A stretch of 39,993 nucleotides of DNA from an uncultured Acetobacteraceae bacterium (GCA_937874445.1 CALNAL010000143.1:1-39993), one strand, 5' to 3'; shown: positions 593-16,777, counted from the stretch's first letter. The notes: generated from the sequence alone by a model not told the origin. Translations and numbers: made by a program.

Positions 593-1267
593 TCAGCGTG
601 GACGCACGAAATCCATGGCCACCTCGATCGCGTGGGTGCGGCGCAGGGCGAACTGATCGGGACGGCGCAGGTCATCGCGGTTGAACACGACCGAAAGGGT
701 TGCCGCATTCGACATGTAGAAATAGCTCAGGCTGGAAATGGTGATGTAGAGCTGCAGCGGCTCGATGCCGGGCTTGATTTCGCCTCTTTCCTCGCCGCGC
801 CGCAGAATGGTCTCGAGCGTGACGATCAGGGAATCGTGCATCGCCTTCAGCTCCTGCGAGCGGACCAGGAAGGCGGCGTTCTGCAGGTTCTCGACGGCGA
901 GCAGGCGGATGAAGCGGGGATGCGCGAAATCGTAGTCGCACTTGAATTCCACCAATCGGCGAATCGCCTGGAGCGGTTCGAGATCAAGCAGGTTCAGCTC
1001 GCGCTCGGCCTTGCGCATCGCGCCATAGGCGTGTTCCAGGACGAGCTGGTAGAGCTTCTCTTTTGATTCGAAATAGTAATAAATCATCTGCTTGTTGGTG
1101 CCGGCCCGCTCGGCGATCGCATCAACCCGGGCTCCCGAGAGCGCCTTCTCCGCGAATTCCTTCTCGGCAGCGGCAAGGATCGCCCGGCGGGTGCGTTCGG
1201 CGTCACGCGGGGGGCGCTTCTGCCCCTTTGCCGCGACGGCTCCGGCTTCGCTGATACGTTTTGCCAC
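593..1267 (-). CDS. TetR/AcrR family transcriptional regulator (RutR/NicS-like C-terminus)
   Basis: HTH segment ILAAAEKEFAEKALSGARVDAIAERAGTNKQMIYYYFESKEKLY. Start placed at GTG 1267 with GGAAGG upstream (track ORF starts at 1393). Divergent from the catabolic operon. Confidence 0.9.
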   Translation of the reverse strand: MAKRISEAGAVAAKGQKRPPRDAERTRRAILAAAEKEFAEKALSGARVDAIAERAGTNKQMIYYYFESKEKLYQLVLEHAYGAMRKAERELNLLDLEPLQAIRRLVEFKCDYDFAHPRFIRLLAVENLQNAAFLVRSQELKAMHDSLIVTLETILRRGEERGEIKPGIEPLQLYITISSLSYFYMSNAATLSVVFNRDDLRRPDQFALRRTHAIEVAMDFVRPR

Positions 1268-1364
1268 CAAGACGACCTTCCCGCAGAATCCATCGATAAC
1301 AAGGATCGCGATACGATGCAGCCTGCTCCCCTGCGGGTCAACACCGGGGGTGGCGGGAAGGTTC

Positions 1365-1410
1365 TTGACGGGCGTTCCGGCCGAGATTATCAACCAACTA
1401 TATAGATAAT
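1365..1410 (+). promoter_or_regulatory. Sigma70-like promoter (TTGACG-N17-TATCAA) overlapped by an AT-rich inverted repeat ATTATC-N13-GATAAT, a candidate TetR operator
   Basis: TTGACG 1365-1370, TATCAA 1388-1393; ATTATC 1386-1391 and GATAAT 1405-1410 lie in the divergent gap. Confidence 0.55.
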
Positions 1411-1507
1411 AAATGACGGAGGGGGGCGTCCAAACGCGGTTTCACAGCCGGTCGCTCCCGGCTTGTGCGTTCCGTTCTGTGCGCCCCTGCCCGCCAAGAG
1501 AGGCAGG

Positions 1508-3103
1508 ATGACGGTTCGAATCGTAACGGCGGACGAGGCTGCCGCCCTGGTTGAAAACGGAGATACGGTGCTGATCGGCGGCTCCGGCGCTGGGCACTCG
1601 GTACCCGATGCGCTGATCGCCGCGATCGGAAAGCGCTTTGCGGAAAGCGGCATGCCGCGCGGCATCACCACCTTTCATCCCGTAGGTCTGGGCGATCATG
1701 CCGAACTCGGCCTGGCCCATCTCGCCCAGCCGGGTCTGCTCAAGCGCGTGGTCTGCGGCGCCCTTGTCGATTCACCGATCATCGCGAAAATGGCGGCCGA
1801 CAATCAGATCGAGGCCTACACCCTGCCCCAGGGATGCCTTTCGCAGTTGACGCGCGAGATGGCGGCCGGGCGCCCCGGGCTGCTGACACATGTCGGACTC
1901 GGAACGTTTGTCGATCCGCTCCTCGGCGGCGGGCGACAGAGCGAATGCGCCCGGGAGGACCTCGTCGAGCGGGTCCGGCACGGCGGAAAGGACTACCTGT
2001 TTTTCAAGGCGCCCATTGCCGATTTTGCCCTACTGCGCGGGACCACGGCCGATGGGGACGGCAACGTGACGATGGAGCACGAGGCGGTCTTCGGAGAGAT
2101 GCTTTCGATGGCCCAGGCGGCCCGGCGGTGCGGCGGCATCGTCGTTGTTCAGGTCAAGCGCCTTGCCCTGCGCGGCACGCTGCCGCCCAAGCAGGTCAAG
2201 ATTCCCGGGATGCTGGTTGACCTCGTGGTGGTCGAGCCCGATCAACCGCAGACGTTCTTTACCCGCTATGATCCCGCCTATGCCGGTGAGTTGCGCGTGC
2301 CGCTTTCCAACATCACGCCTCTGCCTTTTTCGGTTCGAAAGGTGATCGCCCGCCGGGCTGCCATTGAACTCTTTCCCGGGGCCATCTGCAATCTTGGGTC
2401 CGGGGTTTCGACGGGGATTGCCTCGATCGCTGCCGAGGAGGATGCCCTCGATGACGTCGTGCTCACCAATGAGCAGGGATTGATCGGCGGGGCCCCGGCC
2501 ACCGGCAACGAGCCGGGGGCGGCGCGCAACTATCAGGCGATCGTCGATCAGCCCTACCAGTTCGACTTCTACGACGGCGGCGGGCTCGATCTGGCATTCC
2601 TGTCGTTTGCCGAGATCGATGCGGCAGGGGATGTCAATGTCAGTCGTTTCGGTGATCGCATCATCGGTCCCGGCGGTTTCATCAACATCAGCCAGAACGC
2701 GAAAACGGTGATTTTCAGCGGGACATTCACCGCCGGCGGGCTCGATATCGCGTGGTCTGGGGGGGCGACGAACATCAAAAAAGAAGGCCGCAGCAGGAAA
2801 TTCGTCGAAAAAGTCCAGCAGGTGACATACAGCGGTTCCCTCGGCTTTTCCAATGGCCAGCGCACGCTCTTCGTGACCGAGCGTGCGGTGTTCCGGCGCA
2901 ACGAGGCCGGGCGTGTCGAGCTGATCGAGATTGCTCCCGGCATTGATCTTGAACACGACGTGCTGGCGCAGATGTGCTTCCGGCCGGAGATATCGCCGGC
3001 TCTCAAGGGAATGGACCCGCGCCTGTTCTCCCCTGTCCCGATGGGGCTTCCCGCCATCATTGCTGCCAATCGTCGCCCGCCGCGCTCGGCCCGCCTGGCC
3101 TGA
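1508..3103 (+). CDS. Family I acyl-CoA:acetate/3-ketoacid CoA-transferase (fused alpha/beta, YdiF/Pct-like)
   Basis: AYTLPQG, GLLTHVGLGTFVDP, catalytic-Glu motif NEQGLIGG, QFDFYDGGGLD, GPGGFINISQNAK, VTERAVF, IEIAPGID. ATG at 1508. Confidence 0.92.
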   Translation: MTVRIVTADEAAALVENGDTVLIGGSGAGHSVPDALIAAIGKRFAESGMPRGITTFHPVGLGDHAELGLAHLAQPGLLKRVVCGALVDSPIIAKMAADNQIEAYTLPQGCLSQLTREMAAGRPGLLTHVGLGTFVDPLLGGGRQSECAREDLVERVRHGGKDYLFFKAPIADFALLRGTTADGDGNVTMEHEAVFGEMLSMAQAARRCGGIVVVQVKRLALRGTLPPKQVKIPGMLVDLVVVEPDQPQTFFTRYDPAYAGELRVPLSNITPLPFSVRKVIARRAAIELFPGAICNLGSGVSTGIASIAAEEDALDDVVLTNEQGLIGGAPATGNEPGAARNYQAIVDQPYQFDFYDGGGLDLAFLSFAEIDAAGDVNVSRFGDRIIGPGGFINISQNAKTVIFSGTFTAGGLDIAWSGGATNIKKEGRSRKFVEKVQQVTYSGSLGFSNGQRTLFVTERAVFRRNEAGRVELIEIAPGIDLEHDVLAQMCFRPEISPALKGMDPRLFSPVPMGLPAIIAANRRPPRSARLA

Positions 3104-3135
3104 CCCACCCCTTTCCTGATTTCCGAGAGACCACG

Positions 3136-4605
3136 ATGAAATATGGCGAATATCCAAAATCCACGTCTTTCGCTCGACTCTCCGACTTCATCGCGCATAT
3201 GCGTCATCTGGGCCTGGAGATGCCCTGCGATGAAGTCGTCGAAAGCGGCCCCTCCTCTCCGCTCGCGGCCCCGCTCGAGGTGGATGGCCTCAAGATAGGA
3301 AACCGCCTCGGCATCCACCCGATGGAGGGCTGGGACTGCAATGCCGACGGCACCCCCAGCGAAAACACCGTGCGTCGCTGGACGCGATTCGGCTCCAGCG
3401 GAGGCAAGCTGATCTGGGGGGGGGAAGCCTGTGCGGTTCGCCCCGATGGGCGTGCGAATCCGCACCAGCTGATGATGGCCGACCATACCCAGTCCTCGAT
3501 CGCCGCGATGCGCGAGGCGCTGGTCAAGGCGCATATCGCCGCCGCCGGGTCCGATGCCGGACTGGTGGTGGGCCTCCAGCTCACCCATTCCGGACGATTC
3601 TGCAAGCCCCACGACAACAGAAAATTCGAATCGATCATCGCCTACCACCACCCCCTGCTCGATCGCAGATTCGGTGTCCCAGCGAATCTCGAACCGATCA
3701 GCGACGAGGGAATCGAGCAGCTGATTGCCGATTATGTGATCGCCGCCAAGCGGGCGCAGGAGTGCGGCTTCGATTTTGTCGATATCAAGCACTGCCACGG
3801 GTATCTCGGCCATGAGCTGCTGGGGGCCCGCTCGCGTCCGGGCAGGTTCGGAGGCAGCTTTGAGAATCGCACGCGCTTCCTGCGCGATATCGTCGCCGGC
3901 ATCCGCACCGAGGCCCCGGGCCTGCGCATCGGAGTGCGTCTGAGCGCAATCGATACGTTGCCGTTCAAGCCGGATCAGACGGATGCCGCGCCAGGTCAGC
4001 TCGGTCCGGGCATGCCCGAAAAATTTGCGGGGAGCTACGAATTCGGCTTCGGCATAAATCCCGCCAATCCATTCGAATATGATCTTGCCGACAGCAAGAG
4101 ATTCCTGGGCGTTCTGCGCGAGCTGGGCATCCATCTCGTCAACATCACGCTTTCCAGCCCATACTACACGCCCCACTACACTCGTCCGGCCCTCTATCCA
4201 CCTTCGGACGGCTACGCGCCACCGGAAGACCCCTATGTCGGAGTCATGCGGCATATTGCCGTGGTACGCGATCTCAAGGCGGCCTTTCCCGATATGTGCC
4301 TGATGGGCAGCGGCTACACCTATCTGCAGGAATACCTGCCCAATGTCGCCCAGGCGGCGGTACGTCGGGCCATGGTCGATGTGGTCGGGCTCGGGCGCAT
4401 GGTGCTTTCCTATCCCGAGATGCCTCTCGATGTTCTGGCCGGCAGGCCTGTGCAGAGAAAACGGATTTGCCGAACTTTCAGCGACTGTACGACTGCGCCA
4501 CGCAACGGGCTCGTCTCGGGCTGCTACCCGCTCGATGCACATTATAAAAAGTCCTGCAAATTCACTGAGCTTTGCAAAATAAAAAAGACGGCCGGTACAA
4601 AATGA
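3136..4605 (+). CDS. NADH:flavin oxidoreductase (Old Yellow Enzyme family TIM barrel)
   Basis: NRLGIHPMEG, LQLTHSGR, GFDFVDIKHCHGYLGHELL, GGSFENRTRF, VGLGRM. ATG at 3136. Confidence 0.88.
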   Translation: MKYGEYPKSTSFARLSDFIAHMRHLGLEMPCDEVVESGPSSPLAAPLEVDGLKIGNRLGIHPMEGWDCNADGTPSENTVRRWTRFGSSGGKLIWGGEACAVRPDGRANPHQLMMADHTQSSIAAMREALVKAHIAAAGSDAGLVVGLQLTHSGRFCKPHDNRKFESIIAYHHPLLDRRFGVPANLEPISDEGIEQLIADYVIAAKRAQECGFDFVDIKHCHGYLGHELLGARSRPGRFGGSFENRTRFLRDIVAGIRTEAPGLRIGVRLSAIDTLPFKPDQTDAAPGQLGPGMPEKFAGSYEFGFGINPANPFEYDLADSKRFLGVLRELGIHLVNITLSSPYYTPHYTRPALYPPSDGYAPPEDPYVGVMRHIAVVRDLKAAFPDMCLMGSGYTYLQEYLPNVAQAAVRRAMVDVVGLGRMVLSYPEMPLDVLAGRPVQRKRICRTFSDCTTAPRNGLVSGCYPLDAHYKKSCKFTELCKIKKTAGTK

Positions 4606-5480
4606 AGGTTGGATTCATCGGTCTCGGGCTGATGGGGGCGCCGATGGCCGCCAATCTGGCCAGGGGCGGACATCAGCTTTTCCTCTTCGACGTGGTGCGG
4701 ATTCCGGCTGATCTGATCGCTGCCGGAGGCGTTGCATGCGCCTCCTCCGGCGAGGTCGCAGGGAGGGCGGATGTCGTCATCACCATGGTGCCGAAGACAG
4801 CCGACGTGGAGCAGATTCTGTTTTCGCCGGGAGGGGTCGCGGAAAACCTTTCTCCGGGGAAGCTGGTGATCGACATGAGTTCCAGTGCCCCGTTTGAAAC
4901 CCGGAAATTCGCCGAGCGCATCGGGAAAATTGGCTGCGAGTATCTCGATGCCCCGGTCTCGGGGGGAGACATCGGCGCGAGGGAGGGAAGCCTGACCATC
5001 ATGGTCGGAGGTACCGACCGTGCTTTCGAACGCGCGCGTCCGCTCTTCGCGCTGATGGGCCGCAACATCACCCATGTCGGTGCGAGCGGAGATGGGCATG
5101 CGACCAAGCTCGCCAATGCGATCATCGTGGGCGGCACCATGACGGCAGTGGCCGAGGCCCTGCATGTGGTCAAGCTGAGCGGTGCCAGTCCGGCGGCGGT
5201 GCGCGCCGCATTGAAGGGCGGCTTTGCCGATTCCCGCGTGCTGGACCTGCACGGCAAGCGCATGGCCGAGCGGGACTTCGTGCCGGGGGGACCTGCCCGC
5301 TTCCAGCTCAAGGACATGCGCACCGCGGAAGATTTCGCGGAGAAGGCCGGAGCGCATCTGACCATCCTTCCGAAATTGATTGAAATGTACACGGAACTCA
5401 TCGAACGGCAGGGAGACGCGCTGGATGTCTCGGCAATCCTGCTTGAGGTGGAGCGCCGTACCAGGGAGAGCACGAAATGA
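4602..5480 (+). CDS. NAD(P)-dependent beta-hydroxyacid dehydrogenase (2-hydroxy-3-oxopropionate reductase / 3-hydroxyisobutyrate dehydrogenase family)
   Basis: MKVGFIGLGLMGAPMA, LDAPVSGG, LTIMVGG, catalytic Lys in TKLAN. ATGA overlap with the upstream stop. Confidence 0.9.
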   Translation: MKVGFIGLGLMGAPMAANLARGGHQLFLFDVVRIPADLIAAGGVACASSGEVAGRADVVITMVPKTADVEQILFSPGGVAENLSPGKLVIDMSSSAPFETRKFAERIGKIGCEYLDAPVSGGDIGAREGSLTIMVGGTDRAFERARPLFALMGRNITHVGASGDGHATKLANAIIVGGTMTAVAEALHVVKLSGASPAAVRAALKGGFADSRVLDLHGKRMAERDFVPGGPARFQLKDMRTAEDFAEKAGAHLTILPKLIEMYTELIERQGDALDVSAILLEVERRTRESTK

Positions 5481-6238
5481 GCGACCATATCGAATACAGC
5501 GCCAAGGATGGCGTCGGGCGGATCGTGCTGGCTCGTCCGGAGAAGCTGAATGCCATCACAAAGGAGATGGCGCGCGAACTTCGGCGCATCTGCCTGGACA
5601 TCGATGCCGATGACAAGGTCCGTGTGGCGACGATTACCGGAGCCGGGGACCGGGCCTTTTCGGCCGGCAGCGATCTCAATGGGCTGGCCGATCTCTCCGA
5701 TCTGTGGGCATTCCGCAACCGTGTCGAATACGCGGCGGCAGTGCGTGACGTGCGCAAGCCCGTGATCGCCGGATTGAAGGGATGGGTGCTCGGCGGGGGG
5801 CTGGAGATGGCACTCGCCGCCGATATCCGCGTCGCCGGGAGAAGCGCGAAGTTCGGCGGCCCGGAGGTGACGCGCGGCTGGGTCGGGGGCGGTGGCGCGA
5901 CGCAGATGCTGCCGCGTCTGGTCGGCTACGGCCAGGCTGCCCGCATGCTGCTGGTTGGCGATCCTGTCGATGCCGAGAACGCATTCCGTATCGGCCTGGT
6001 CGAGGAACTGGTCGAGGACAGCGAGGTCGAAAAGCGTATCGGCGCGCTTGCCGCTGCAATGGCCGCCCTCAGCCCGGTCGCGGTGCAATCGACCAAGGCT
6101 GCCATCCGCGCGGCGCTCTCCACTCCCCTCGAGGCCGGCATCCGCTACGAGAACGAGATCCATGTCATCTGCATGGCGGACAAGGACCGGATGGAGGGGA
6201 TCAAGGCCTTCCAGGAAAAGCGGCAGGGCCGTTTCTAG
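5477..6238 (+). CDS. Enoyl-CoA hydratase/isomerase (crotonase family)
   Basis: AFSAGSDL oxyanion motif, GGGLE, ADIRVA, FGGPE (both catalytic Glu present). ATGA overlap. Confidence 0.92.
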   Translation: MSDHIEYSAKDGVGRIVLARPEKLNAITKEMARELRRICLDIDADDKVRVATITGAGDRAFSAGSDLNGLADLSDLWAFRNRVEYAAAVRDVRKPVIAGLKGWVLGGGLEMALAADIRVAGRSAKFGGPEVTRGWVGGGGATQMLPRLVGYGQAARMLLVGDPVDAENAFRIGLVEELVEDSEVEKRIGALAAAMAALSPVAVQSTKAAIRAALSTPLEAGIRYENEIHVICMADKDRMEGIKAFQEKRQGRF

Positions 6239-6253
6239 ATCGCGGAAGGCATC

Positions 6254-7096
6254 ATGATGCGCGATTTTTCCACCGGGTCTGCTCCGATCGCGCTGAACAC
6301 GGCGACTCTTGGTCCGCGCGCCAGCCTGAAGGACGCCGTCGATGGCTGCCTGCGTCATGGCATTGCCACCCTTTCCCCGTGGCGCGACCGGATTGCCGCG
6401 ACCGGTCTGCATGCTGCCAGCAGGCTGATTCGCGACTCCGGCCTGACGGTCGCCGGCCTGTGCCGGGGAGGGATGTTTCCTGCTGCCGACGCGGCCGGCC
6501 GCAAGGCTGTCCGCGAGGACAACCTGAGGGCCCTCGATGAGGCCGCCACACTCGGGGCGGGGGCGCTGGTGCTGGTGGTCGGGAGTCTGCCGGCGGGCTC
6601 GAAGGATATTTCCGCGGCCCGCCGGCAGGTGGAGGAGGGCATCGCCGCATTGCTCGAGGATGCCCGCGAGTTCGGCGTGAGGCTCGCGATCGAGCCGCTC
6701 CACCCGGTCTACGCCGCCGAGCGGGCCTGCGTGAACACGCTTGCCCAGGCGCTGGACATGTGCGACCGGCTCGGCGGGGACCTGGGCATTGCCATCGACG
6801 CCTATCACGTCTGGTGGGACCCCGACCTTTCCCGCCAGATCGCGCGTGCGGGCAGGAGCGGTCGCATTCTCGGCTTTCATGTCAGCGACTGGATGCTGCC
6901 GACGGCAAGCGTGCTCAACGATCGCGGGATGATGGGGGAGGGGATCATCGACCTCAAGGCGCTGCGTGGCGAGGTCGAGGCGGCCGGCTTCGCTGGCCCT
7001 GTCGAGGTTGAGATTTTTTCGGAGCGAAACTGGTGGATGCGACCCGTCGACGAGATTCTTTCGGCGGTCGTGCGGGCCTGCCGCACCGCCGTGTGA
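6254..7096 (+). CDS. Sugar phosphate isomerase/epimerase (xylose isomerase-like / AP endonuclease 2 TIM barrel)
   Basis: Metal-ligand motifs LAIEPLHP, IDAYH, FHVSD, VEVEIF; RGMMGEGIID. Confidence 0.88.
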   Translation: MMRDFSTGSAPIALNTATLGPRASLKDAVDGCLRHGIATLSPWRDRIAATGLHAASRLIRDSGLTVAGLCRGGMFPAADAAGRKAVREDNLRALDEAATLGAGALVLVVGSLPAGSKDISAARRQVEEGIAALLEDAREFGVRLAIEPLHPVYAAERACVNTLAQALDMCDRLGGDLGIAIDAYHVWWDPDLSRQIARAGRSGRILGFHVSDWMLPTASVLNDRGMMGEGIIDLKALRGEVEAAGFAGPVEVEIFSERNWWMRPVDEILSAVVRACRTAV

Positions 7097-7114
7097 TTCT
7101 GAAGGTCTTCTGGG

Positions 7115-8488
7115 ATGAAAATAGATTCTGCCCTCACGCCGCAATCGCTCCTGGAACCCATCCGCCGGATGTGGGAGATTTCCGCACCGAAAATCATCGA
7201 GATCGATGCGACTTTCGATCATTCCGGGGGCGCGCCTGTTTATACTGTTGCCGGCCGCTACGTCCCGCGCGGATGGACGGACTGGACACAGGGCTTCGAG
7301 TTCGGCTCGGCCATTCTTCAGTTCGACGCGACCGGAGATGAGAGATTCCTGGCCATGGGGATCGCCCGGACCAGGGCCTGCATGCCTGTGCATGTCACCC
7401 ATTTTGGCGTGCACGACCACGGCTTCAACCAGGTTTCCACCTACGGCAACCTGCTGCGCCTGATGACGGAAGGGCGGATTCCATTCGACGCGTGGCAGCG
7501 CGAATATCTTGAACTGGCATTGAAGTGTTCTGCCGCGGTGCAGGCCAGCCGGTGGACGCGCCTCGGCGACGGGGAGGGCTTCATCTATTCCTTCAACGGC
7601 CCGCACTCCCTGTTCATCGACACCCTCCGCACCCTGCGCATCCTCGCGCTCGGATATCGCCTCGGACATGTCCTGAAGGGAGAGGGGGATGCGGAGATCC
7701 CGCTTCTGGGGCGGATGATTTCCCATCTCCGGGCCACTGCGAAATACAACCTGTTCCGGGGGAAGGGGCGCGACATCTGGGACGAGCGGGGACGTACCGC
7801 CCACGAAGCGCTTTTCAACACCGGGAACGGTACTTTTCGCAGCGTCTCCACCCAGCAGGGATATTCGGGATTTTCCACCTGGATGCGGGGACTGTCCTGG
7901 GCGATGACGGGCTTTGCCGAACAGATCGAATTCTTCGACACTCTGGCAGACGAGGCGCTCGTTCCCTTCGGCGGACGCGAGGAGATCATCGCTCTGCTCT
8001 CGGAGGCCGCCGCGGCGACGATGGATTTCTACATCGCCCACACGGCGACCGACGGCATTCCCTATTGGGATACCGGTGCGCCCGGCCTGGTTCATCTCGG
8101 GGATGTCTACGAACGTCCGTCCGAACCGGAAAACGATTTCGAGCCGGTGGACAGCTCGGCCGCTGCCATCGGCGCACAGGGGCTGGTGCGCTACGGCGGC
8201 TGGCTCGCGCGTCATCATCGCAAGGGGGGAGCGCGATATTTCCAGGCCGGGCTTACGGTTCTTGCGACCTTGCTGGGGCCGCGCTACCTCTGTCCCTCTC
8301 CGAAACATCAGGGCCTGCTGCTGCACAGCCAGTATCATCGCCCGAACGGGTGGGATCATATCCAGCCGGGACATCGTTCGCCGTTCGGAGAGGCCACGAT
8401 GTGGGGCGACTATCACATGCGCGAACTCGCGCTTCTGGTACAGCGCATCGCCGGGGGCGGCCCCTACCCAGCCTTCTTTTCCGTCTAG
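7115..8488 (+). CDS. Glycoside hydrolase family 88-like protein (unsaturated glucuronyl hydrolase fold), no signal peptide
   Basis: WTQGF, HDHGF, FIDT, WMRGLSW, PYWD, DSSA and WGDY match the GH88/UGL motif series. The N-terminus is hydrophilic. Confidence 0.82.
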   Translation: MKIDSALTPQSLLEPIRRMWEISAPKIIEIDATFDHSGGAPVYTVAGRYVPRGWTDWTQGFEFGSAILQFDATGDERFLAMGIARTRACMPVHVTHFGVHDHGFNQVSTYGNLLRLMTEGRIPFDAWQREYLELALKCSAAVQASRWTRLGDGEGFIYSFNGPHSLFIDTLRTLRILALGYRLGHVLKGEGDAEIPLLGRMISHLRATAKYNLFRGKGRDIWDERGRTAHEALFNTGNGTFRSVSTQQGYSGFSTWMRGLSWAMTGFAEQIEFFDTLADEALVPFGGREEIIALLSEAAAATMDFYIAHTATDGIPYWDTGAPGLVHLGDVYERPSEPENDFEPVDSSAAAIGAQGLVRYGGWLARHHRKGGARYFQAGLTVLATLLGPRYLCPSPKHQGLLLHSQYHRPNGWDHIQPGHRSPFGEATMWGDYHMRELALLVQRIAGGGPYPAFFSV

Positions 8489-8595
8489 AGCGGGCTGCGC
8501 TCACGCGCCCCGCTCTCGCACCCGGTTTCCTCGCGCGATTCGGACTTCTGGCGATTCCGCCAGTCGTCATCGCGCTCCATGGGAGGTCACGTGAC

Positions 8596-9375
8596 ATGAA
8601 CGCTTCGAAAAAGCGGCGTGTTGCTCTTGTTACCGGCGGGAGGCGCGGCATCGGCCGGGCCATCGCCCGGCGGTTGGCGGGGGAGGGCTTCGATGTCGCG
8701 ATCACCGGAACCTCGCCCGCCGACGAGGTTTCACGTGCAGTGGTCGCCGGGCTCCAGTCTTCGGGGGCACGCGCATGCTACATTGCCGGGCGGACCGACG
8801 AACTGGAGGACCATGCCCGCGTGCTCGATGCGGTCGAGACAACCCTTGGACCGATCGACGTGTTGGTCTCCAACGCGGGCATTGCGCCGCCTCGGCGTTT
8901 GGATCTTCTCGAGACGACGCCGGAGAACTTCGACGTGGTGCTGGGGGTCAACCTGCGGGGCGCGTTCTTCCTCGCCCAGGCGGTGGCGCGACGCATGCTG
9001 GCCGTGGCGGCGGAGGGGAGCCGGTCGCTGGTTTTCGTCTCCTCCTGCTCGGCGGAAATGGTCTCGCTCAACCGGCTCGAATACTGCATCTCCAAGGCCG
9101 GACTCTCGATGGCGATCCAGGGGCTGGCGGCCCGGCTCGCCGGGGAGGGGATCGGCGTCTTCGAGGTGCGGCCGGGGATCATCCGCACCGACCTGACAGC
9201 GGGCGTCGCCGCACGCTACGATTCGGTGATCGGGGAGGGGCTGGTTCCGGCCAGGCGATGGGGCGAGGGCGAGGACGTCGCCGCCGCGGTCGCGGCGCTG
9301 GCGGGACCGGATCTGTTCTTCTCGACCGGCTCGGTTGTCAATGTCGATGGGGGACTGACCCTCAGCCGACTGTAG
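8596..9375 (+). CDS. Short-chain dehydrogenase/reductase ('3-ketoacyl-ACP reductase'-like)
   Basis: TGGRRGIG, VSNAG, YCISK, RPGIIRTD, VDGG. ATG 8596 after GGGAGG. Confidence 0.92.
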   Translation: MNASKKRRVALVTGGRRGIGRAIARRLAGEGFDVAITGTSPADEVSRAVVAGLQSSGARACYIAGRTDELEDHARVLDAVETTLGPIDVLVSNAGIAPPRRLDLLETTPENFDVVLGVNLRGAFFLAQAVARRMLAVAAEGSRSLVFVSSCSAEMVSLNRLEYCISKAGLSMAIQGLAARLAGEGIGVFEVRPGIIRTDLTAGVAARYDSVIGEGLVPARRWGEGEDVAAAVAALAGPDLFFSTGSVVNVDGGLTLSRL

Positions 9376-9533
9376 AGCCGGCGGGATTGCGCGGGGCACG
9401 CGGATCGGTCCGGGAAGCAGAGAGCCGGAACCTTCGCCGGGCGCCGAGGCGGAGGGAAAAGGCTCCATCCACATTCCAGAGCAGACGGCCGCGCACACGG
9501 AAGTTTCCGGCGTTTGCCGGCCGGACAATAAAC

Positions 9534-9547
9534 TATCCGGATGGATA
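9534..9547. promoter_or_regulatory. Inverted repeat TATCC-N4-GGATA upstream of the MFS gene (possible second operator)
   Basis: Palindrome within an AT-rich patch of the 9376-9599 gap. Confidence 0.35.
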
Positions 9548-9599
9548 ACAAAACAGATTGCCCCGGTGCAACGACACGGGGGTAGGAGGAATCGGAAGA

Positions 9600-10820
9600 A
9601 TGCAGACCAAGGCACAACAGATCCGGATCATCCTGACAGCCGTCCTGGGATGGATGCTCGACTCGTTCGATTTCTGCGTCATGTTGTTCGTCGTGACCGA
9701 TGTGGCCGCCGAGTTCCATGTCGGCATCACCGCGGTGACCTGGGCCGTGACCGCGACCCTGTTCCTGCGCGTGTTCGGGGCGGCGATCTTCGGGGCGCTC
9801 GCCGATCGCTTCGGCCGCAAGCCGCTGCTGATCGCCAACACGCTCGCCTTCTCGGTTTGCGAGGTGGCAAGCGGATTTTCGCCCAGTCTCGGGGCATTCC
9901 TGATGTTGCGTGCGCTTTACGGCATCGCCATGGGCGGCCAGTGGGGCATCGCGACCTCCTGGACCATCGAAAGCATCCCGGCCAACTGGCGGGGGTGGGC
10001 CTCCGGCCTGCTGGGCGCGGGGTATTCGGTCGGCTATCTGCTGGCCGGTCTGTTCTATGGCTTCGCCCATGACGCGCTCGGCTGGCGCGGCATGTTCATC
10101 GTCGCTGCCTTGCCGGCCCTCGTCGTGATCGGCCTGGCGGCCAGCGCCCCGGAAAGCCCCATCTGGCGCACGCAAAGCCACAAGCCCAAGCAGAGCACGG
10201 CCCTGATCCTGCGTTCCAACTGGAAGCTCTCGGCCTATGCCGTGATCCTGATGTTCGCGGCGGCCACCATGAGCCACGGCACCCAGGACCTCTACCCGGT
10301 GATGCTGCGGGTCCAGCACGGGCTGAACGCCCACGAGCTGGCCACCGTCGCCTCCGTCTACAGTATCGGCGGCATCCTCGGCTGCCTGTTCGGCGGCTCG
10401 CTGTCGCAGAAGATCGGACGGCGCCGGGAGCTGGTGCTGGCCTCGGCGCTGATGCTGGTGCTGATGCCCTTCTGGGGACTGTGCACCGGCCTCGTCGCGC
10501 TGACCGTGACGGCTTTCCTGATGCAGTTCCTGGTGCAATGCAGCTTCGGCACCATCCCCGCGCATCTCAACGAGATGTCTCCCCCGGGGATCCGCGGCAC
10601 CTTCCCCGGCGTCGCCTTCCAGTTCGGCAATATGCTGGCCGCCGGCAACGCAACCCTGCAGTCCGTGCTCGCCGACAAGCTCGACAAGAACTACGGCGTG
10701 GCTCTCTCCGTGATTGCCGCCGCCGGTGCGCTGGCCTTCTGCCTGCTGGCCTACTGGGGGCCGGACAAGTGCAACGTGGAGATGGGCGACGACGTGGCGG
10801 AGCGCCGCCCCTCGGCCTGA
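9600..10820 (+). CDS. MFS transporter, sialate:H+/carboxylate symporter (SHS; NanT/Jen1-like) family
   Basis: LGWMLDSFDF, motif A GALADRFGRK, RALYGIAMGGQW, SHGTQDLYP, IPAHLNEMSP..RG. About 12 hydrophobic segments. ATG 9600 after AGGAGG. Confidence 0.88.
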   Translation: MQTKAQQIRIILTAVLGWMLDSFDFCVMLFVVTDVAAEFHVGITAVTWAVTATLFLRVFGAAIFGALADRFGRKPLLIANTLAFSVCEVASGFSPSLGAFLMLRALYGIAMGGQWGIATSWTIESIPANWRGWASGLLGAGYSVGYLLAGLFYGFAHDALGWRGMFIVAALPALVVIGLAASAPESPIWRTQSHKPKQSTALILRSNWKLSAYAVILMFAAATMSHGTQDLYPVMLRVQHGLNAHELATVASVYSIGGILGCLFGGSLSQKIGRRRELVLASALMLVLMPFWGLCTGLVALTVTAFLMQFLVQCSFGTIPAHLNEMSPPGIRGTFPGVAFQFGNMLAAGNATLQSVLADKLDKNYGVALSVIAAAGALAFCLLAYWGPDKCNVEMGDDVAERRPSA

Positions 10821-10869: not shown

Positions 10870-10911
10870 CCGGGGAAAGAGGCAGGATGGCCGGGGAAAG
10901 AGGCAGGATGG
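10870..10911. repeat. Perfect 21-bp tandem duplication (CCGGGGAAAGAGGCAGGATGG x2)
   Basis: Read directly: 10870-10890 and 10891-10911. Confidence 0.9.
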
Positions 10912-11086: not shown

Positions 11087-11165
11087 CGTCGGTCCGCGAG
11101 GGTTCGCGCACCGACGCATTTTTTGTTGTCCCCGGTGTCCTTCGAGGAGGGCGCCCTCCAGCGGG
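11087..11165 (+). ncRNA. Structured 5' leader of ffh (two hairpins separated by a U-tract; probable ffh leader RNA)
   Basis: CGTCGGT-c-CGCGA / TCGCG-c-ACCGACG stem (11087-11116), then CATTTTTTG, then a GGTGTCCTT/GAGGGCGCC stem. A conserved ffh leader is described in alphaproteobacteria, but a match was not computed. Confidence 0.5.
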
Positions 11166-11179
11166 GTGAGGTTCGCGTC

Positions 11180-12556
11180 GTGTTCGAAAGCCTCTCAGGC
11201 AAGCTCTCCGGCGTCTTCGACCGCCTGCGCGGTCGTGGCGCCCTCAGCGAATCCGACGTCGCCGAGGCCCTGCGCGAGGTCCGCCTCGCCCTGCTCGATG
11301 CCGATGTCGCCCTGCCGGTGGTGCGCGACTTCATCGCCGCGGTGCGCGAGCGGGCGGTGGGCCAGGAAGTGCTGGCCTCGGTCTCGCCCGGACAGCAGGT
11401 CGTCAAGATCGTCAACGACGCGCTGGTCGAGCAGCTCGGCGGCGCCGGTGCGGTCGGGCTCAATCTCAATGCCCCGGCGCCGATCGCCATTCTGATGGTC
11501 GGCCTGCAGGGCTCGGGCAAGACCACCACCTCGGCCAAGATCGCGCTGCGGCTTACCTCCAAGCTGCGCAAGAAGGTCCTGCTCGCCTCGCTCGATACCC
11601 AGCGCCCCGCCGCCCAGCTCCAGCTCGCCCAGCTCGCCGAACAGGCCGGCGTGGCCTCGCTGCCCATCGTCGCCGGGCAGACCCCGTTGCAGATCGCCGC
11701 CCGCGCCATGGAGACGGCGCGGCGCGAGGTGTTCGATGTGGTGCTACTCGACACCGCCGGCCGCCTCGCCATCGACCAGGTGCTGATGGACGAGGTGAAG
11801 GCCGTTCGCGAGGCCACCCATCCCGTCGAGACGCTGCTGGTGGTCGATGCCATGACCGGCCAGGACTCGGTGAACACCGCGCGCGCCTTCAACGAGGCGG
11901 TCGGGGTCTCCGGCATCGTCATGACCCGCATGGACGGCGATGCCCGCGGCGGCGCGGCGCTCTCCATGCGGGCGGTGACGGGCGCGCCGATCAAGCTGGT
12001 CGGCATCGGCGAGAAGATCGACGCGCTGGAGGAATTCCACCCCGAGCGCGTGGCCGGCCGCATCCTCGGCATGGGCGACGTGGTCGGGCTGGTCGAGAAG
12101 GCCGCCGAGACCCTCGACGAGCAGGAGGCGGAGGCGCTTGGCCGCAAGATGGCCAAGGGGACCTTCGACCTCGAGGACTACGCCAAGCAGCTGCGCCAGA
12201 TCGGCAAGATGGGCAGCATGTCCTCCATCCTCGGCATGTTGCCGGGGGCGGGCAAGATCAAGGCGCAGCTCGAGGCCGCCGGCAAGGCCGACCTCGACAA
12301 GACCGTGCTCAAGCGCCAGGCCGCCATCATCTCCTCGATGACGCCCCGCGAGCGGCGCGCCCCCGACGTCATCAAGGCAAGCCGCAAGAAGCGGATCGCC
12401 GCCGGCTCCGGCACCTCGGTGCAGGAGGTCAACAAGCTGCTCAAGCAGTTCGACGACATGACGCACATGATGAAGCGCATGAACAAGCTCGGCCAGAAGG
12501 GGCTGATGCGCCACGGATTGGGCGCGCTGCTTCCGGGCGGGCGTCGTCCGTTCTGA
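11180..12556 (+). CDS. ffh: Signal recognition particle protein Ffh
   Basis: MFESLSGKL start (GTG 11180), [37 protein letters not shown]. Confidence 0.97.
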
Positions 12557-12615
12557 GTTCTGCCACCCTAGAATTTTCCACGCATTCCAACGCAAACACG
12601 GAGACTGAACACAAC

Positions 12616-12957
12616 ATGGGCCTGAAGATTCGCCTCGCCCGCGCCGGCGCCAAGAAGCGGCCGTACTACCACATCGTGGTGGCCGACTCCGCCTCCCCCC
12701 GTGACGGGCGCTTCATCGAAAAGGTGGGCTCCTACAACCCGATGCTGCCGCTCGAGCACGAGGATCGCGTGCGCCTGCAGGCCGAGCGCATCACCCATTG
12801 GCTGAGCAAGGGCGCCCTGGCCACCGAGCGCGTCGCCCGCTTCCTCGGCAAGGCCGGGCTGGCGCCGATGCCCGCCTGGCATGAGCAGCCCAAGCAGTCC
12901 GCCCCGCGCAAGAAGGCGCAGGAGCGTGCCGCCGAGGCCGCCAAGGTCGCCGGCTGA
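12616..12957 (+). CDS. rpsP: 30S ribosomal protein S16
   Basis: [31 protein letters not shown]; synteny. Confidence 0.97.
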
Positions 12958-12967
12958 GCACTGAGAG

Positions 12968-13492
12968 GTGGACGGGCGCCGCATCCTGATGGGGGTCGTG
13001 GGCAAGCCGCATGGCGTGCGGGGGCTGGTGCATGTGCACAGCTATACCGAGACGCCCGAGGCGCTGCCCGGCTATGGCCCCTTCGACGACGGCCACGGGC
13101 GCCGCTTCGCGCTCTCCTGGCGCGGCCCCGTCGGGGATGGCGGCGAGGGCGTGGCGGCGCTGGCGGAGATCGCCGACGGCAAGCCGGTTCCGGTGACCGA
13201 TCGCACGGCCGCCGAGAAGCTGGTGAACATGTGCCTCTACGCCGCGCGGGACGCGCTGCCCGAGACCGACGACGACGAGTTCTATCTCGCCGACCTCGTC
13301 GGGCTCGAGGCGGTGGATGCCGCCGGCGCGGCCCTGGGCAAGGTGGTGGCGGTGCATGACCATGGCGCCGGCGCCTTCCTTGAGGTCGGGCCGATGATGG
13401 TGCCTTTCACCCGCGCCGCGGTGCCCGAGATCGACCTCGCGGGGAGACGCATCGTCATCGTCCCGCCGGCCGAGGTGGAGGCACGTCCATGA
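12968..13492 (+). CDS. rimM: Ribosome maturation factor RimM
   Basis: [27 protein letters not shown]; synteny. Confidence 0.95.
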
Positions 13493-14271
13493 GCCCGCAG
13501 GCTGCGACTCCGCGGGCTCCCTGGCGGGCCTCTGTGCTGACCCTCTTTCCCGAGGTCTTTCCCGGACCGCTCGGCGCCTCGCTGGCCGGGCGGGCGCTCG
13601 GGGAAGGGATCTGGTCGTGCGCGGCGCACGACATCCGGGCCCACGCCACCGATCGCCACCGCACGGTGGACGATACGCCCTTCGGCGGCGGCGCGGGCAT
13701 GGTGATGCGCCCCGACGTGCTGGATGCCGCCCTCGGCGCGGTGGCCGACGATCGCCCGGCGATCGTGCTGACCCCGCGCGGCGTGCCGTTGACCCAGGCG
13801 CGGGTGCAGGCCCTCGCCGACGGTCCCGGCGTGGTGCTGCTGTGCGGCCGCTACGAGGGAATCGACCAGCGTGTCATCGAGGCGCGCGGGCTCGAAGAGG
13901 TCAGCATCGGCGACTTCGTGCTCTCCGGCGGCGAGCTGGCGGCCATGGTGCTGCTCGACGCCTGCGTCCGGCTGCTGCCGGGCGTGATGGGGGCGGCCGA
14001 GAGCGCCGAGGAGGAGAGCTTCACCGCCGGGCTGCTCGAATATCCCCACTACACCCGCCCCGCCGTCTGGCAGGAGCGGGGCGTGCCCGAGGTGCTGCTC
14101 AGCGGCAACCATGCCGCCGTCGCCGCGTGGCGGCGCGAGCAGGCCGAACGCATCACCCGCGAACGCCGCCCCGACCTGTGGGCGGCCCAGACGGCCCATT
14201 CCGATACAACCCATTGCGATGCCGGCATGTCCGGCACTGCCCGAGAGAAAACCGAGAGGACCCCGTTATGA
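13489..14271 (+). CDS. trmD: tRNA (guanine37-N1)-methyltransferase
   Basis: [44 protein letters not shown]. Confidence 0.97.
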
Positions 14272-14708
14272 ACATCATCCAGCAGATCGAGGCCGAGCAG
14301 GTCGCCCGTCTCGTTGCCGACCGCCCGGTGCCCGACTTCCGCCCCGGCGACACGCTGCGCGTGTCGGTGAAGGTAGTCGAGGGCGAGCGCACCCGTCTGC
14401 AGGCCTTCGAGGGCGTGTGCATCGCCCGCTCCAACAAGGGGCTGAACTCCAACTTCACCGTGCGCAAGATCAGCTACGGCGAGGGCGTGGAGCGCGTGTT
14501 CCAGCTCTATGCGCCGACCATCGCGGCGATCGAGGTGGTGCGTCACGGCGACGTGCGCCGCGCCAAGCTGTATTACCTGCGCGGTCGCCGCGGCAAGTCG
14601 GCCCGCATCGCCGAGCGCGGCCGCGACCTGAACGCCGTCGCCACCCCCGCCGAGGGCGCCGCTCCCGCCGAGGCCCCGGCCGCAGCGCCGGAGCAGCCCG
14701 CCTCCTGA
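14268..14708 (+). CDS. rplS: 50S ribosomal protein L19
   Basis: [44 protein letters not shown] 14268 overlaps the trmD stop. Confidence 0.97.
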
Positions 14709-14741
14709 CCGGGGCGGGAAGACACGGGTAAGGAGACGTCG

Positions 14742-16157
14742 ATGCCAGAAACGCAGAAACCACGCACGTTGTTCGACAAGGTATGGGATGCCCATGTCGT
14801 CGAGCGATTGCCTGACGGGACCTGCGTTCTCTACATCGACCGCCACCTCGTCCACGAGGTCACCAGTCCGCAGGCCTTCGAGGGCCTGCGGATGGCTGGC
14901 CGCGCGGTGCGCCGCCCCGAGGCGACGCTCGCGGTGGTGGACCACAACGTGCCCACCGCCGATCGTCGCAACGGTATTTCCGAGCCGCAGAGCCGCCTGC
15001 AGGTGGAGACGCTCGAGCAGAACGTCGCCGCTTTCGGCGTGCCCTACATCCCGCTGCTCGACGCGCGCCAGGGCATCGTGCACGTGATCGGGCCGGAGCT
15101 GGGCGCCTCGCTGCCGGGCATGACCATCGTCTGCGGCGATTCCCACACCGCTACCCACGGCGCGTTGGGCGCGCTCGCCTTCGGCATCGGCACCTCCGAG
15201 GTCGAGCATGTGCTGGCGACCCAGACCCTGCTGCAGAAGCCGGCAAAGAACATGCTGGTGCGGGTGGACGGCACCCTCGGCCGCGGGGTCACGGCCAAGG
15301 ATGTGGTGCTGGCCGTCATCGGCCGCATCGGCACCGCCGGTGGCACCGGCCACGTGATCGAGTTCGCCGGCTCGGCGATCCGCGCGCTCGACATGGCCGG
15401 CCGCATGACGGTGTGCAACATGGCCATCGAGGCGGGCGCGCGGGCCGGCATGGTCGCCCCCGACGAGACCACCTTCGCCTACGTGCGGGGACGGCCCTTC
15501 GCGCCGCAGGGCGCGGCGCTGGAGCAGGCCATCGCCTACTGGCGCACGCTGCCCTCCGATGCAGGCGCCGCCTACGAGAAAACCGTGGCGCTCGACGCGA
15601 CGGAGATCGTCCCGATGGTGACATGGGGCACCAACCCCGAGGCCGTGGTGGCGATCACCGGTCGCGTGCCCGACCCCGCCGCCGAGACCGATACGGCCCG
15701 CCGCGCGCAGATGCAGCGCATGATCGCCTACATGGGCCTCCAGCCTGGCCAGGAGATGCAAAGCGTGCCGGTGGACGTGGTGTTCGTCGGCTCCTGCACC
15801 AACGGCCGCATCGAGGACATCCGTGCCGTCGCCGCCGTGGCGAAGGGGCGCCACGTGGCCGAGGGCGTGCGCGCGCTGGTGGTGCCGGGCTCGGGGCTGG
15901 TGAAGCAGCAGGCCGAGGCGGAGGGGCTCGATCGCATCCTCCGCGAGGCCGGCTTCGAATGGCGCGAGCCGGGCTGCTCGATGTGCCTGGGCATGAACCC
16001 CGACCAGCTTGCCCCGGGGCAACGTTGCGCTTCAACATCGAATCGCAATTTCGAGGGACGGCAGGGACCCGGCGGACGCACCCACCTGGTCTCGCCGGCG
16101 ATGGCCGCCGCCGCCGCCGTCACCGGCCACCTCGCCGACGTGCGGGAGATGTCGTGA
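14742..16157 (+). CDS. leuC: 3-isopropylmalate dehydratase large subunit
   Basis: [47 protein letters not shown]. Confidence 0.97.
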
Positions 16158-16777
16158 TGGACGCCTTCACCAAGCTCACCGCCGTCGCCGCGCCGCTGCC
16201 GATGGCCAATGTCGATACCGACAAGATCATTCCCGCGCGCTTCCTCAAGACCATCAAGCGCACCGGCCTGGGCGTGCATCTGCTCGACACGCTGCGCTAC
16301 GACGAGAGCGGCGCCGAGCGGCCCGACTTCGTGCTCAACCGCGAGCCCTATCGCAAGGCGCAGATCCTCATCGCCCACGAGAATTTCGGCTGCGGTTCCT
16401 CGCGCGAGCATGCCCCCTGGGCGCTGCGGGACTTCGGCATCCGCTGCGTGATCGCACCGGATTTCGCCGACATCTTCTTCAACAACAGCTTCAAGAACGG
16501 CATCCTGCTGATCCGCCTGCCGCGCGCGGTGTGCGACACGCTGATGGGTGATGCCGGGATGGGCGGCAACGCGCGGCTGACCGTCGATCTCGCCCGCCAG
16601 GTGGTGGTGCGTCCGAACGGCGAGGAGATCGCCTTCGAGATCGACCCATTCCGCAAGCACCTGCTGCTCAACGGCCTCGACGACATCGGCCAGACCTTGC
16701 AGCATGCGCCGCAGATCGAGTCCTACGAAACCCGGCGCCGCGCCGAGAAGCCGTGGCTGCCGAGCATCGCCATCTAG
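16157..16777 (+). CDS. leuD: 3-isopropylmalate dehydratase small subunit
   Basis: [37 protein letters not shown] 16157. Confidence 0.97.

Follow-up and report, generated by a model that had tools for sequence, protein, structure and literature searches.

The locus at positions 593-10820 of a 39,993-nt stretch of DNA from an uncultured Acetobacteraceae bacterium (GCA_937874445.1, CALNAL010000143.1:1-39993; hereafter the window) very probably belongs to one modular, TetR-linked family of sugar-acid genes. It consists of nine intact open reading frames: a TetR gene on the minus strand and, divergent from it, eight co-directional genes encoding a CoA-transferase, an old yellow enzyme (OYE), a beta-hydroxyacid dehydrogenase, a crotonase, a TIM barrel, a protein of a GH88-like subfamily (GH88L), a short-chain dehydrogenase/reductase (SDR) and a major facilitator superfamily (MFS) transporter, as a preliminary description of this DNA had stated. 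Orthologous TetR, TIM and SDR genes and the operator are shared with a regulon of the Gfo-DUF993-TIM (SMc04130/ytfA) type. We tentatively propose that the gene set catabolises a comenate-like six-carbon 4-pyranone- or dihydropyran-2-carboxylate to 2-keto-3-deoxygluconate (KDG).

A palindrome shared by dispersed gene sets

Between the TetR gene and the CoA-transferase gene lies a palindrome (1393-1410) with the family consensus GTAACYA-NN-TRGTTAC, which we take to resemble the RutR box. The same palindrome is found, always intergenic, ahead of kdgA-kdgK-GH88L-SDR, Gfo, CoA-transferase, shikimate-dehydrogenase-like (SDH-like), DUF993 and SHS genes, ahead of the pSymA acyl-CoA dehydrogenase gene of S. 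meliloti and ahead of ytfA/SDR of E. coli; the S. fredii version of the gene set has it too. Further sites precede a second kdgK (genome G061) and enolase, ABC and MetE-like genes, and in locus L001 a site stands directly ahead of a lone GH88L-SDR pair. In Telmatospirillum, sites accompany genes for an NfnAB-like transhydrogenase (L190:7812-10799) and a CtpM-like chemoreceptor (L189:7853-9580), whose sensor domain is a possible handle on the identity of the ligand. The GH88L clusters of enterobacteria differ in their TetR, and their palindrome, though related, is not the same.

Employing a strict operator pattern, we found 12 sites in 5 genomes and 0 with the reversed control. A matrix trained on 24 sites, taken from other genomes only, gave three matches at its threshold of 11.5 bits in the host genome (an assembly of 3.4 Mb, 91% complete). 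The window site at 1393-1410 was the top match genome-wide, and the other two were on contig C69. These two belong to a paralogous cluster (L084, C69:1377-7681) with TetR and SHS genes and Gfo, TIM, GH88L (71%) and SDR genes; its SDR gene is cut off where the contig stops, and the remainder is probably on C379. The palindrome is likely the binding site of TetR, through which one repressor would switch the regulon.

The repressor itself (593-1267, minus strand) is RutR/YtfA-like, with TetR_N and TetR_C_29 domains. Its start is most likely the in-frame GTG at 1267 (224 aa) rather than 1393, because the operator occupies 1393-1410. A putative operon promoter (1365-1393, plus strand), read from the sequence as TTGACG, 17 nt, TATCAA, has the same layout in L013; it was not listed by a consensus scan for promoters and terminators that performed at chance level. 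A weaker operator-like site, below the matrix threshold, lies at about 9528-9549 ahead of the transporter gene (9600-10820, plus strand), which may be a separate unit. By family match, the transporter is an SHS-type (NanT/NanX-like) MFS carboxylate:H+ symporter.

Exchange of modules within the family

To define the partners of GH88L, we used the best 80 of 207 GTDB loci (2.7-21 kb long); genes were called with our own gene caller and grouped into single-linkage families, and the counts are approximate lower bounds. GH88L was nearly always paired with one SDR family (61 of the 80 loci), followed by OYE (19), TIM (17), Gfo (15), KdgK (14), KdgA (13), TetR (11), CoA-transferase (10), SDH-like protein (8), crotonase (6), MaoC (6) and beta-hydroxyacid dehydrogenase (2). 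DUF993 was found in 0/80 of these loci and in 0/27 GH88L genomes including the host, with the positive control detected. An evenly drawn sample of 200 genomes of the host's class had the TIM barrel in 20; its 20 TIM loci came from 19 genomes, with one weak partial match outside the set, and contained DUF993 in 15 cases, Gfo in 13 and GH88L in none. OYE and TIM occurred together in 0/80 loci and 0/22 genomes (OYE in 8, TIM in 10, neither in 4).

Four module combinations were seen: Gfo+TIM+GH88L+SDR, OYE+GH88L+SDR, Gfo+TIM+DUF993 and OYE+DHDPS-like barrel. GH88L (with SDR and KdgK/KdgA) alternates with DUF993, and the OYE alternates with Gfo+TIM. The place of DUF993 or GH88L can also be taken, together with KdgK and KdgA, by a 690-aa FAD_binding_2 protein (SdhA/NadB-like); flavoproteins of this type, 670-690 aa long, are encoded at L235:11679-13691 and L095:12625-14697. 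A protein atlas query on it returned no answer. We had considered the E. coli version a long OYE; it is a FAD_binding_2 protein that swaps with DUF993, not with the OYE.

A distinct subfamily of the GH88 fold

The GH88L gene (7115-8488, plus strand) encodes a protein with no match in Pfam (PF07470) or NCBIfam. PF07470 scores canonical UGL-like proteins weakly as well (27 bits), and some GH88L homologues do match it. The identification as GH88 in the preliminary description, not an obvious one, proved correct, based on matches to UGL structures in PDB (sequence E 6e-9; profile E 4e-17) and on the fold: in the AF2 model (pLDDT 91), the ten best Foldseek matches were all UGLs with the (alpha/alpha)6 fold (E 3e-16, TM 0.69/0.83). 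Aligned via a canonical GH88 bridge protein (L213), D101 and D169 correspond to D115 and D175 of S. agalactiae UGL. Both residues, and W57, Q248, W256, R258, W262 and W430, are invariant in 81/81 homologues, and the UGL carboxylate/ring pocket (W-x-R-G-x-x-W, His, Gln, WGDY) is present.

The characterised UGLs (Bacillus sp. GL1, 1VD5; S. agalactiae, 2ZZR; 3WIW) have in common with GH88L the fold, the catalytic Asp pair and the W/H/Q/R pocket, whereas GH88L is 19-23% identical to them, about 60-80 aa longer, and marked by a PNxW loop and invariant F160, R172 and R175, which UGL does not show. The subfamily is tight, at 54-76% identity across six phyla (Proteobacteria, Bacteroidota, Planctomycetota, Acidobacteriota, Verrucomicrobiota and Armatimonadota), and large, with at least 8000 matches in many phyla; in the protein atlas it bears GH88 labels only. 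A hydrophobic N-terminal window indicative of a signal peptide was found in 0/79 members by a crude test whose control was positive. Neither a lyase nor GH154 was found near GH88L among the recurrent neighbours or in the 75 of 141 singletons scanned (E 1e-22), lyases not having been searched genome-wide. From the invariant GH88 site and the lack of a signal peptide, we predict that GH88L acts in the cytoplasm on an alpha-carboxy enol ether, with or without an aglycone, protonating it and adding water. The subfamily has probably been repurposed.

In agreement with the preliminary description, the cluster has no lyase, kinase, thiolase or aldolase gene. Elsewhere in the same genome are kdgA-kdgK (L085, C30:2569-4351), whose Rhodoplanes counterparts (79% and 88% identity) flank GH88L; a canonical kduI-kduD set (C369:9544-15585) accompanied by genes for a TRAP importer and an IclR-type regulator; and uxaC (C322). 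The assembly of this genome yielded neither a canonical GH88 nor a GH154-like gene.

The CoA enzymes as a probable optional front end

The CoA-transferase (1508-3103, plus strand) is of the family I YdiF type, with a fused alpha-beta chain and the catalytic Glu kept in the alignment (PDB 2AHU, E 2e-133). It is separated by the OYE gene from those of the beta-hydroxyacid dehydrogenase (4602-5480, plus strand), whose closest NCBIfam model is tartronate-semialdehyde reductase, below cut-off, and the crotonase (5477-6238, plus strand), in which the catalytic E110 and E130 are conserved in 13/13 orthologues. ATGA overlaps, described earlier as several, do exist, but at just two of the seven junctions (OYE/dehydrogenase and dehydrogenase/crotonase); the remaining gaps are 15-224 bp.

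The preliminary description suggested that the CoA-transferase and crotonase might generate the GH88 substrate. CoA genes and GH88L do recur together in enterobacteria (crotonase-MFS-CoA-transferase-SDH-TIM-GH88L-SDR-MaoC-TetR) and in alphaproteobacteria (L013 and L023: kdgA-kdgK-GH88L-SDR-CoA-transferase-TetR-OYE-dehydrogenase-crotonase), but the association is not obligatory, nor is it exclusive. The CoA-transferase is absent from 70 of the 80 GH88L loci; an orthologue (at least 60% identity) was present in 1/26 GH88L genomes, this one being the positive control, and five others hold relatives at 43-48% identity. When loci were collected with the OYE instead (the best 80 of 574 metagenome loci, in 12 of which the gene caller missed the OYE itself), the CoA-transferase occurred in 8, six of them with DUF993 and none with GH88L; the block from CoA-transferase through TetR, OYE and dehydrogenase to crotonase adjoined DUF993 in place of GH88L. 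GH88L occurred in 2 of these 80 loci and another, DHDPS-like barrel in 51. This barrel, which follows the Fe-S OYE (L109-L175, e.g. L166:1809-2864), often comes with an MFS and a cupin gene and has no Pfam match.

CoA modules without GH88L were also seen in P. caribensis, S. meliloti pSymA, Caballeronia and the ytfA island of E. coli (L095:7790-16067), which combines TetR, SDR, TIM, crotonase, CoA-transferase, the 690-aa flavoprotein and an ACS transporter with the same operator; among 5426 E. coli genomes, 104 others have a partial match to its TIM barrel. Because the CoA-transferase stands beside GH88L in only 10/80 loci and pairs with DUF993 as well, it does not, with the crotonase, supply GH88L in general. 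The CoA enzymes are likely an optional front end, not dedicated partners of GH88L.

Alternative front ends are enolases, PhyH dioxygenases and cobalamin-independent MetE-like proteins (recurrent PhyH/MetE-like examples are at L219:13734-14477, L218:4901-5923 and L047:9093-9899). Acyl-CoA dehydrogenase and electron-transfer flavoprotein (ETF) genes adjoin those of the CoA-transferase and crotonase, and other loci carry a PhyH hydroxylase. The transporters are mostly of sugar-acid types (ACS, SHS, SSS and Tct); rhizobial versions have oligosaccharide-type ABC importers and several Gfo enzymes.

A proposed route to KDG

With KdgK and KdgA as the exit, the route must deliver a 2-keto-3-deoxy acid whose end group is CH2OH. 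One hydratase and two reductases make up the enzymes of the smallest GH88L unit, which is flavobacterial (GH88L-OYE-SDR-SSS); its substrate would therefore be KDG minus 4 H and minus water, C6H4O5. Comenate (5-hydroxy-4-pyrone-2-carboxylate) fits this formula. According to the part of the source available, comenate is a glucose-oxidation product of Gluconobacter (PMC10178379).

In the proposed route, the SHS symporter would import the ring acid, and the Fe-S OYE would reduce the C5=C6 enol bond of the ring; in other members, this reduction would fall to the TIM barrel, as tautomerase/hydratase, and a Gfo or SDH-like enzyme. The SDR would then reduce the 4-oxo group to give 2,6-anhydro-3-deoxy-hex-2-enonate, an aglycone-free form of the ring on which GH88 acts. 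GH88L would protonate C3 and add water at C2 to give KDG. KdgK and KdgA, encoded elsewhere in the host genome and inside the regulon in others, would yield pyruvate and glyceraldehyde-3-phosphate. In the alternative versions, the DUF993-type Schiff-base barrel may cut the ring at the 2,4-diketo level into pyruvate and glycerate, the latter matching the glycerate kinases found in DUF993 clusters. The CoA-transferase, crotonase and beta-hydroxyacid dehydrogenase could serve for an optional (de)hydration of the alpha-beta bond of a related acid as CoA thioester, feeding the core; the exact substrate of this front end is the least certain step of the model.

The individual enzymes are compatible with these roles. 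The single-domain OYE (3136-4605, plus strand), whose unusual active site (PMEGW, DxKHCHGY) is invariant, is unlike classical or YqjM-like OYEs in that Lys218 replaces the first active-site His. Its C-terminus has three Cys and one Asp invariant in 77/77 sequences, and it likely carries an Fe-S cluster. Genes for ferredoxin-type proteins (so labelled from a Cys motif), ferredoxin-NADP-reductase and transhydrogenase are among the neighbours, the transhydrogenases (PntAB, NfnAB-like) lying in the operon or under the operator. The Cys motif and these neighbours fit the reduction of a resonance-stabilised ring. The SDR (8596-9375, plus strand) passes NF009386/PRK12745, keeps the S-Y-K triad and has 4DA9 as its closest structure. 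The TIM barrel (6254-7096, plus strand) is of the metal type, AP_endonuc_2 (PF01261), and is the orthologue of S. meliloti SMc04130 (PDB 3JU2); the closest PDB orthologues (3JU2, 3OQB and 4DA9) bear generic names only. TIM barrels of the same Pfam family form the same 2-hydroxy-enone motif, and there is preliminary evidence that one of them hydrates it, in the available portion of PMC10628242. A PyrD paralogue flanks the operator in four loci (L023:3108-4202; L012-L014), and each of the 4 genomes tested with it has another PyrD, roughly 40% identical. PyrD enzymes work on substrates with the same C(COOH)(X)-CH2-C=O arrangement, which we count in favour of a pyranone. Also in its favour, Gfo has 1,5-anhydro-D-fructose reductase among its nearest characterised relatives.

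Several observations weigh against the pyranone proposal. The assignment of the substrate draws on gene co-occurrence only. OYE and TIM, which otherwise exclude each other, are both present in this operon and in genome G065, two exceptions from outside the set of 22 genomes, and 4 of the 22 have neither; since the genomes are kin, partly incomplete and not a random draw, the exclusivity is overstated. A looser operator pattern did no better than its control (7 sites against 9). Shuffled host genomes gave 2, 6 and 4 matrix matches, compared with 3 real ones, so that it is the positions of the matches and not their number that carry weight; by the same matrix, no operator was found ahead of kdgA-kdgK on C30. 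The proposal has no role for the 690-aa flavoprotein in the DUF993 slot and no clean one for the CoA module, PhyH, MetE-like proteins or enolases, and these front ends are no less consistent with the loss of an O-methyl or OR substituent at the beta position. The importers and multiple Gfo enzymes of rhizobia suggest glycosides. Finally, the abundance of comenate in marine and gut habitats is undocumented in the literature covered.

A wider reading, possible though doubtful, would extend the proposal to a pathway for gamma-pyrone carboxylates (comenate/chelidonate), with GH88L as a monosaccharide enol-ether hydratase that no longer cleaves glycosides, a ferredoxin-linked OYE that dearomatises the pyrone, and interchangeable, non-homologous ring openers. 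GH88L, DUF993 or related barrels and the SdhA-like flavoprotein would then answer to a single repressor in bacteria ranging from Flavobacteria to E. coli.

Alternative substrates

Closest to the preliminary description is a route that begins with the introduction of a C4-C5 double bond into a saturated uronate, uronide or 4-O-methylglucuronate. The CoA-transferase with crotonase or MaoC would do this here, and enolase, PhyH or MetE-like demethylation elsewhere; GH88L would release 5-keto-4-deoxyuronate, and TIM and SDR would act like KduI/KduD to give KDG. We consider this somewhat unlikely. It is chemically sound, with both crotonase Glu residues and the CoA-transferase Glu conserved, and the various front ends could all strip a beta-OR group such as O-methyl. 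In L057 and L069, uxaC and a KduD-like SDR gene lie near GH88L, the host has uxaC and kduI-kduD, and the rhizobial importers would suit oligosaccharides. Comenate is, moreover, the formal product of C3 oxidation of a Delta-4,5-uronide with loss of the aglycone, and the pyranone and uronate readings are thus chemically adjacent. However, the rarity of the CoA-transferase among GH88L loci and genomes, and the pairing of the CoA block with DUF993 or the 690-aa flavoprotein, argue against it, and it leaves the replacement of Gfo+TIM by the OYE unexplained. The SDR matches PRK12745, not kduD, and the TIM barrel is a PF01261 protein, so that neither is a KduI/KduD homologue. A role of TIM in place of KduI was not supported, as KduI-family genes do not make up for the absence of TIM. 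In six OYE genomes neither TIM nor any member of the KduI family is encoded, and 5-keto-4-deoxyuronate is therefore an unlikely product there. For a glucuronide or 4-O-methylglucuronate, as suggested initially, we found no direct support: the 75 of 141 candidate neighbours scanned included no lyase, GH67 or GH115, and GH67, present in 8/31 genomes, is absent from the host.

Supply of GH88 or GH105 substrates by a dehydratase, without a lyase, has precedent in GH154/BcGDH (PMC12269599) and P29_PDnc (PMC8511951). In the portions of these papers available, the products leave via KduI/KduD/KdgK/KdgA to KDG and beyond, as lyase-free uses of an enol-ether hydrolase like the one considered here, and the systems need no CoA. 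The idea that P29_PDnc is itself GH88-like was not borne out by the available part of PMC8511951 and was dropped. GH154-like genes occurred in 4/37 genomes. They lay in clusters apart, accompanied by a canonical GH88 of their own or by kduI-kduD; the two such GH88s that were checked share 75% identity and match the bridge UGL at 32%, and none of the four GH154-like regions had an operator (at least 8 bits). GH88L is present as well in two of these genomes, which points to a separate task for it.

An oxidative or redox-neutral route for an anhydro-ulosonate, an ulosonate glycoside or a saturated 2,6-anhydro-aldonate is unlikely. In it, Gfo or the SDH-like enzyme would oxidise C4 and TIM would eliminate or epimerise (Gul, Lgd, NanOx or Ycj logic); alternatively, the OYE, acyl-CoA dehydrogenase/ETF or the PyrD paralogue would desaturate C2-C3, and GH88L and SDR would finish to KDG. 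The SHS transporters of the NanT/NanX family, the rhizobial ABC importers with extra Gfo genes, and the acyl-CoA dehydrogenase/ETF beside CoA-transferase and crotonase, where other loci have the PhyH hydroxylase, are in its favour. The nearest non-orthologue structure to Gfo, 6A3F, which we take to be levoglucosan dehydrogenase, also speaks for this route. On the other hand, OYE+SDR+GH88L alone provides no alcohol dehydrogenase for the first oxidation, the transhydrogenases of the regulon suggest a net demand for reductant, and a saturated 3-deoxy-2,6-anhydro acid has no evident natural source. An oxidation-elimination-hydration-reduction scheme has precedent in the part of PMC10628242 available.

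It is improbable that the CoA genes serve a different, co-regulated small acid (3-hydroxypropionate, acrylate or a side chain), with only TIM, GH88L, SDR and OYE acting on the sugar acid. The CoA block moves independently of GH88L, clusters of CoA-transferase, SDH, MaoC and FAH genes exist beside LacI regulators without annotated TIM, DUF993 or GH88L, and the pSymA acyl-CoA dehydrogenase scores best, below cut-off, against acryloyl-CoA reductase. Against this, the CoA-transferase repeatedly bears the same operator and has the SDH-like gene as a close companion (8/10 loci), which points to a hydroxylated ring substrate.

Very improbable is a pathway for a cyclitol carboxylate (quinate/shikimate type) resembling the E. 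coli ydi operon: the CoA-transferase is YdiF-like, enterobacterial versions have SDH-like partners and a ShiA-like transporter, and the TIM family (PF01261) includes dehydroshikimate dehydratases, but a GH88 site still intact for enol-ether hydration, and the control of KdgK/KdgA by the operator, are out of place in a pathway for a carbocycle, and most transporters are of sugar-acid types.

Comparison with described systems

The S. meliloti SMc04130-SMc04135 cluster (Gfo-DUF993-TIM) and the E. coli ytfA island have orthologous TIM, SDR and TetR and are uncharacterised, being represented by the structural-genomics entries 3JU2, 3OQB and 4DA9; they differ from the present locus in having DUF993 or the 690-aa flavoprotein in place of GH88L, and Gfo in place of the OYE and CoA block. 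The glycoside operons (AtOGE, puerarin, levoglucosan; PMC10628242) likewise employ Gfo and an AP_endonuc_2 TIM barrel on a 2-hydroxy-enone sugar ring, whereas in the available text they act on neutral glucosides, regenerate glucose and show no GH88, DUF993, OYE or CoA step. The Klebsiella michiganensis deoxyribonate cluster (PMC6365646) shares CoA-bound sugar-acid catabolism with a CoA-transferase and a glycerate kinase, in CoA and non-CoA variants; as far as the accessible part of the paper goes, it relies on a synthetase, a 3-hydroxyacyl-CoA dehydrogenase and a thiolase, and includes none of TIM, GH88, OYE and DUF993.

No published description of the pathway or regulon was found in the full-text literature, a search that did not cover supplements such as fitness-screen tables; SMc04129/SMc04132/SMc04135, DUF993, PRK12745 and PF06187 led to one expression table, in the part of PMC12542648 available. 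The earlier view of an undescribed gene set for an acidic, sugar-like carboxylate is supported. Every enzyme belongs to a known fold, and the novelty is that of an undescribed variant of sugar-acid catabolism.

Flanking sequence and origin of the locus

The locus directly precedes ffh and has a GC content of 64%, compared with 70.5% for the rest of the window; G+C at third codon positions is 0.72-0.83 for the seven enzymes and 0.93 for ffh. The OYE of this locus was not found in 60 related genomes. From the lower GC values and the restricted OYE, acquisition of the locus by horizontal gain is likely.

Just 3' of the cluster, a 21-bp unit is repeated twice in tandem (10870-10911), and about 12 of its bases reappear at the start of the CoA-transferase gene (1498-1510); the resemblance is possibly due to chance. 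Downstream lies an ordinary ffh-rpsP-rimM-trmD-rplS-leuCD block (11135-16777, labelled from translations), and positions 1-450 hold a truncated minus-strand gene, presumably serine-carboxypeptidase-like from its motif.

Implications

The regulon is common, and no function for it was found in print. Its operator and module swaps unite several orphan families, namely DUF993, the PRK12745 SDR, the SMc04130-type barrel, the Fe-S OYE and ytfA, as one testable problem. Should GH88L prove to be a free-ring hydratase, the label 'unsaturated chondroitin disaccharide hydrolase' would be wrong in thousands of annotations, and the degradation of glycosaminoglycan and pectin would be over-called in genomes with GH88L. 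If the gamma-pyrone reading holds, functions would be assigned jointly to DUF993, PRK12745, the SMc04130-type barrels and the ytfA island.

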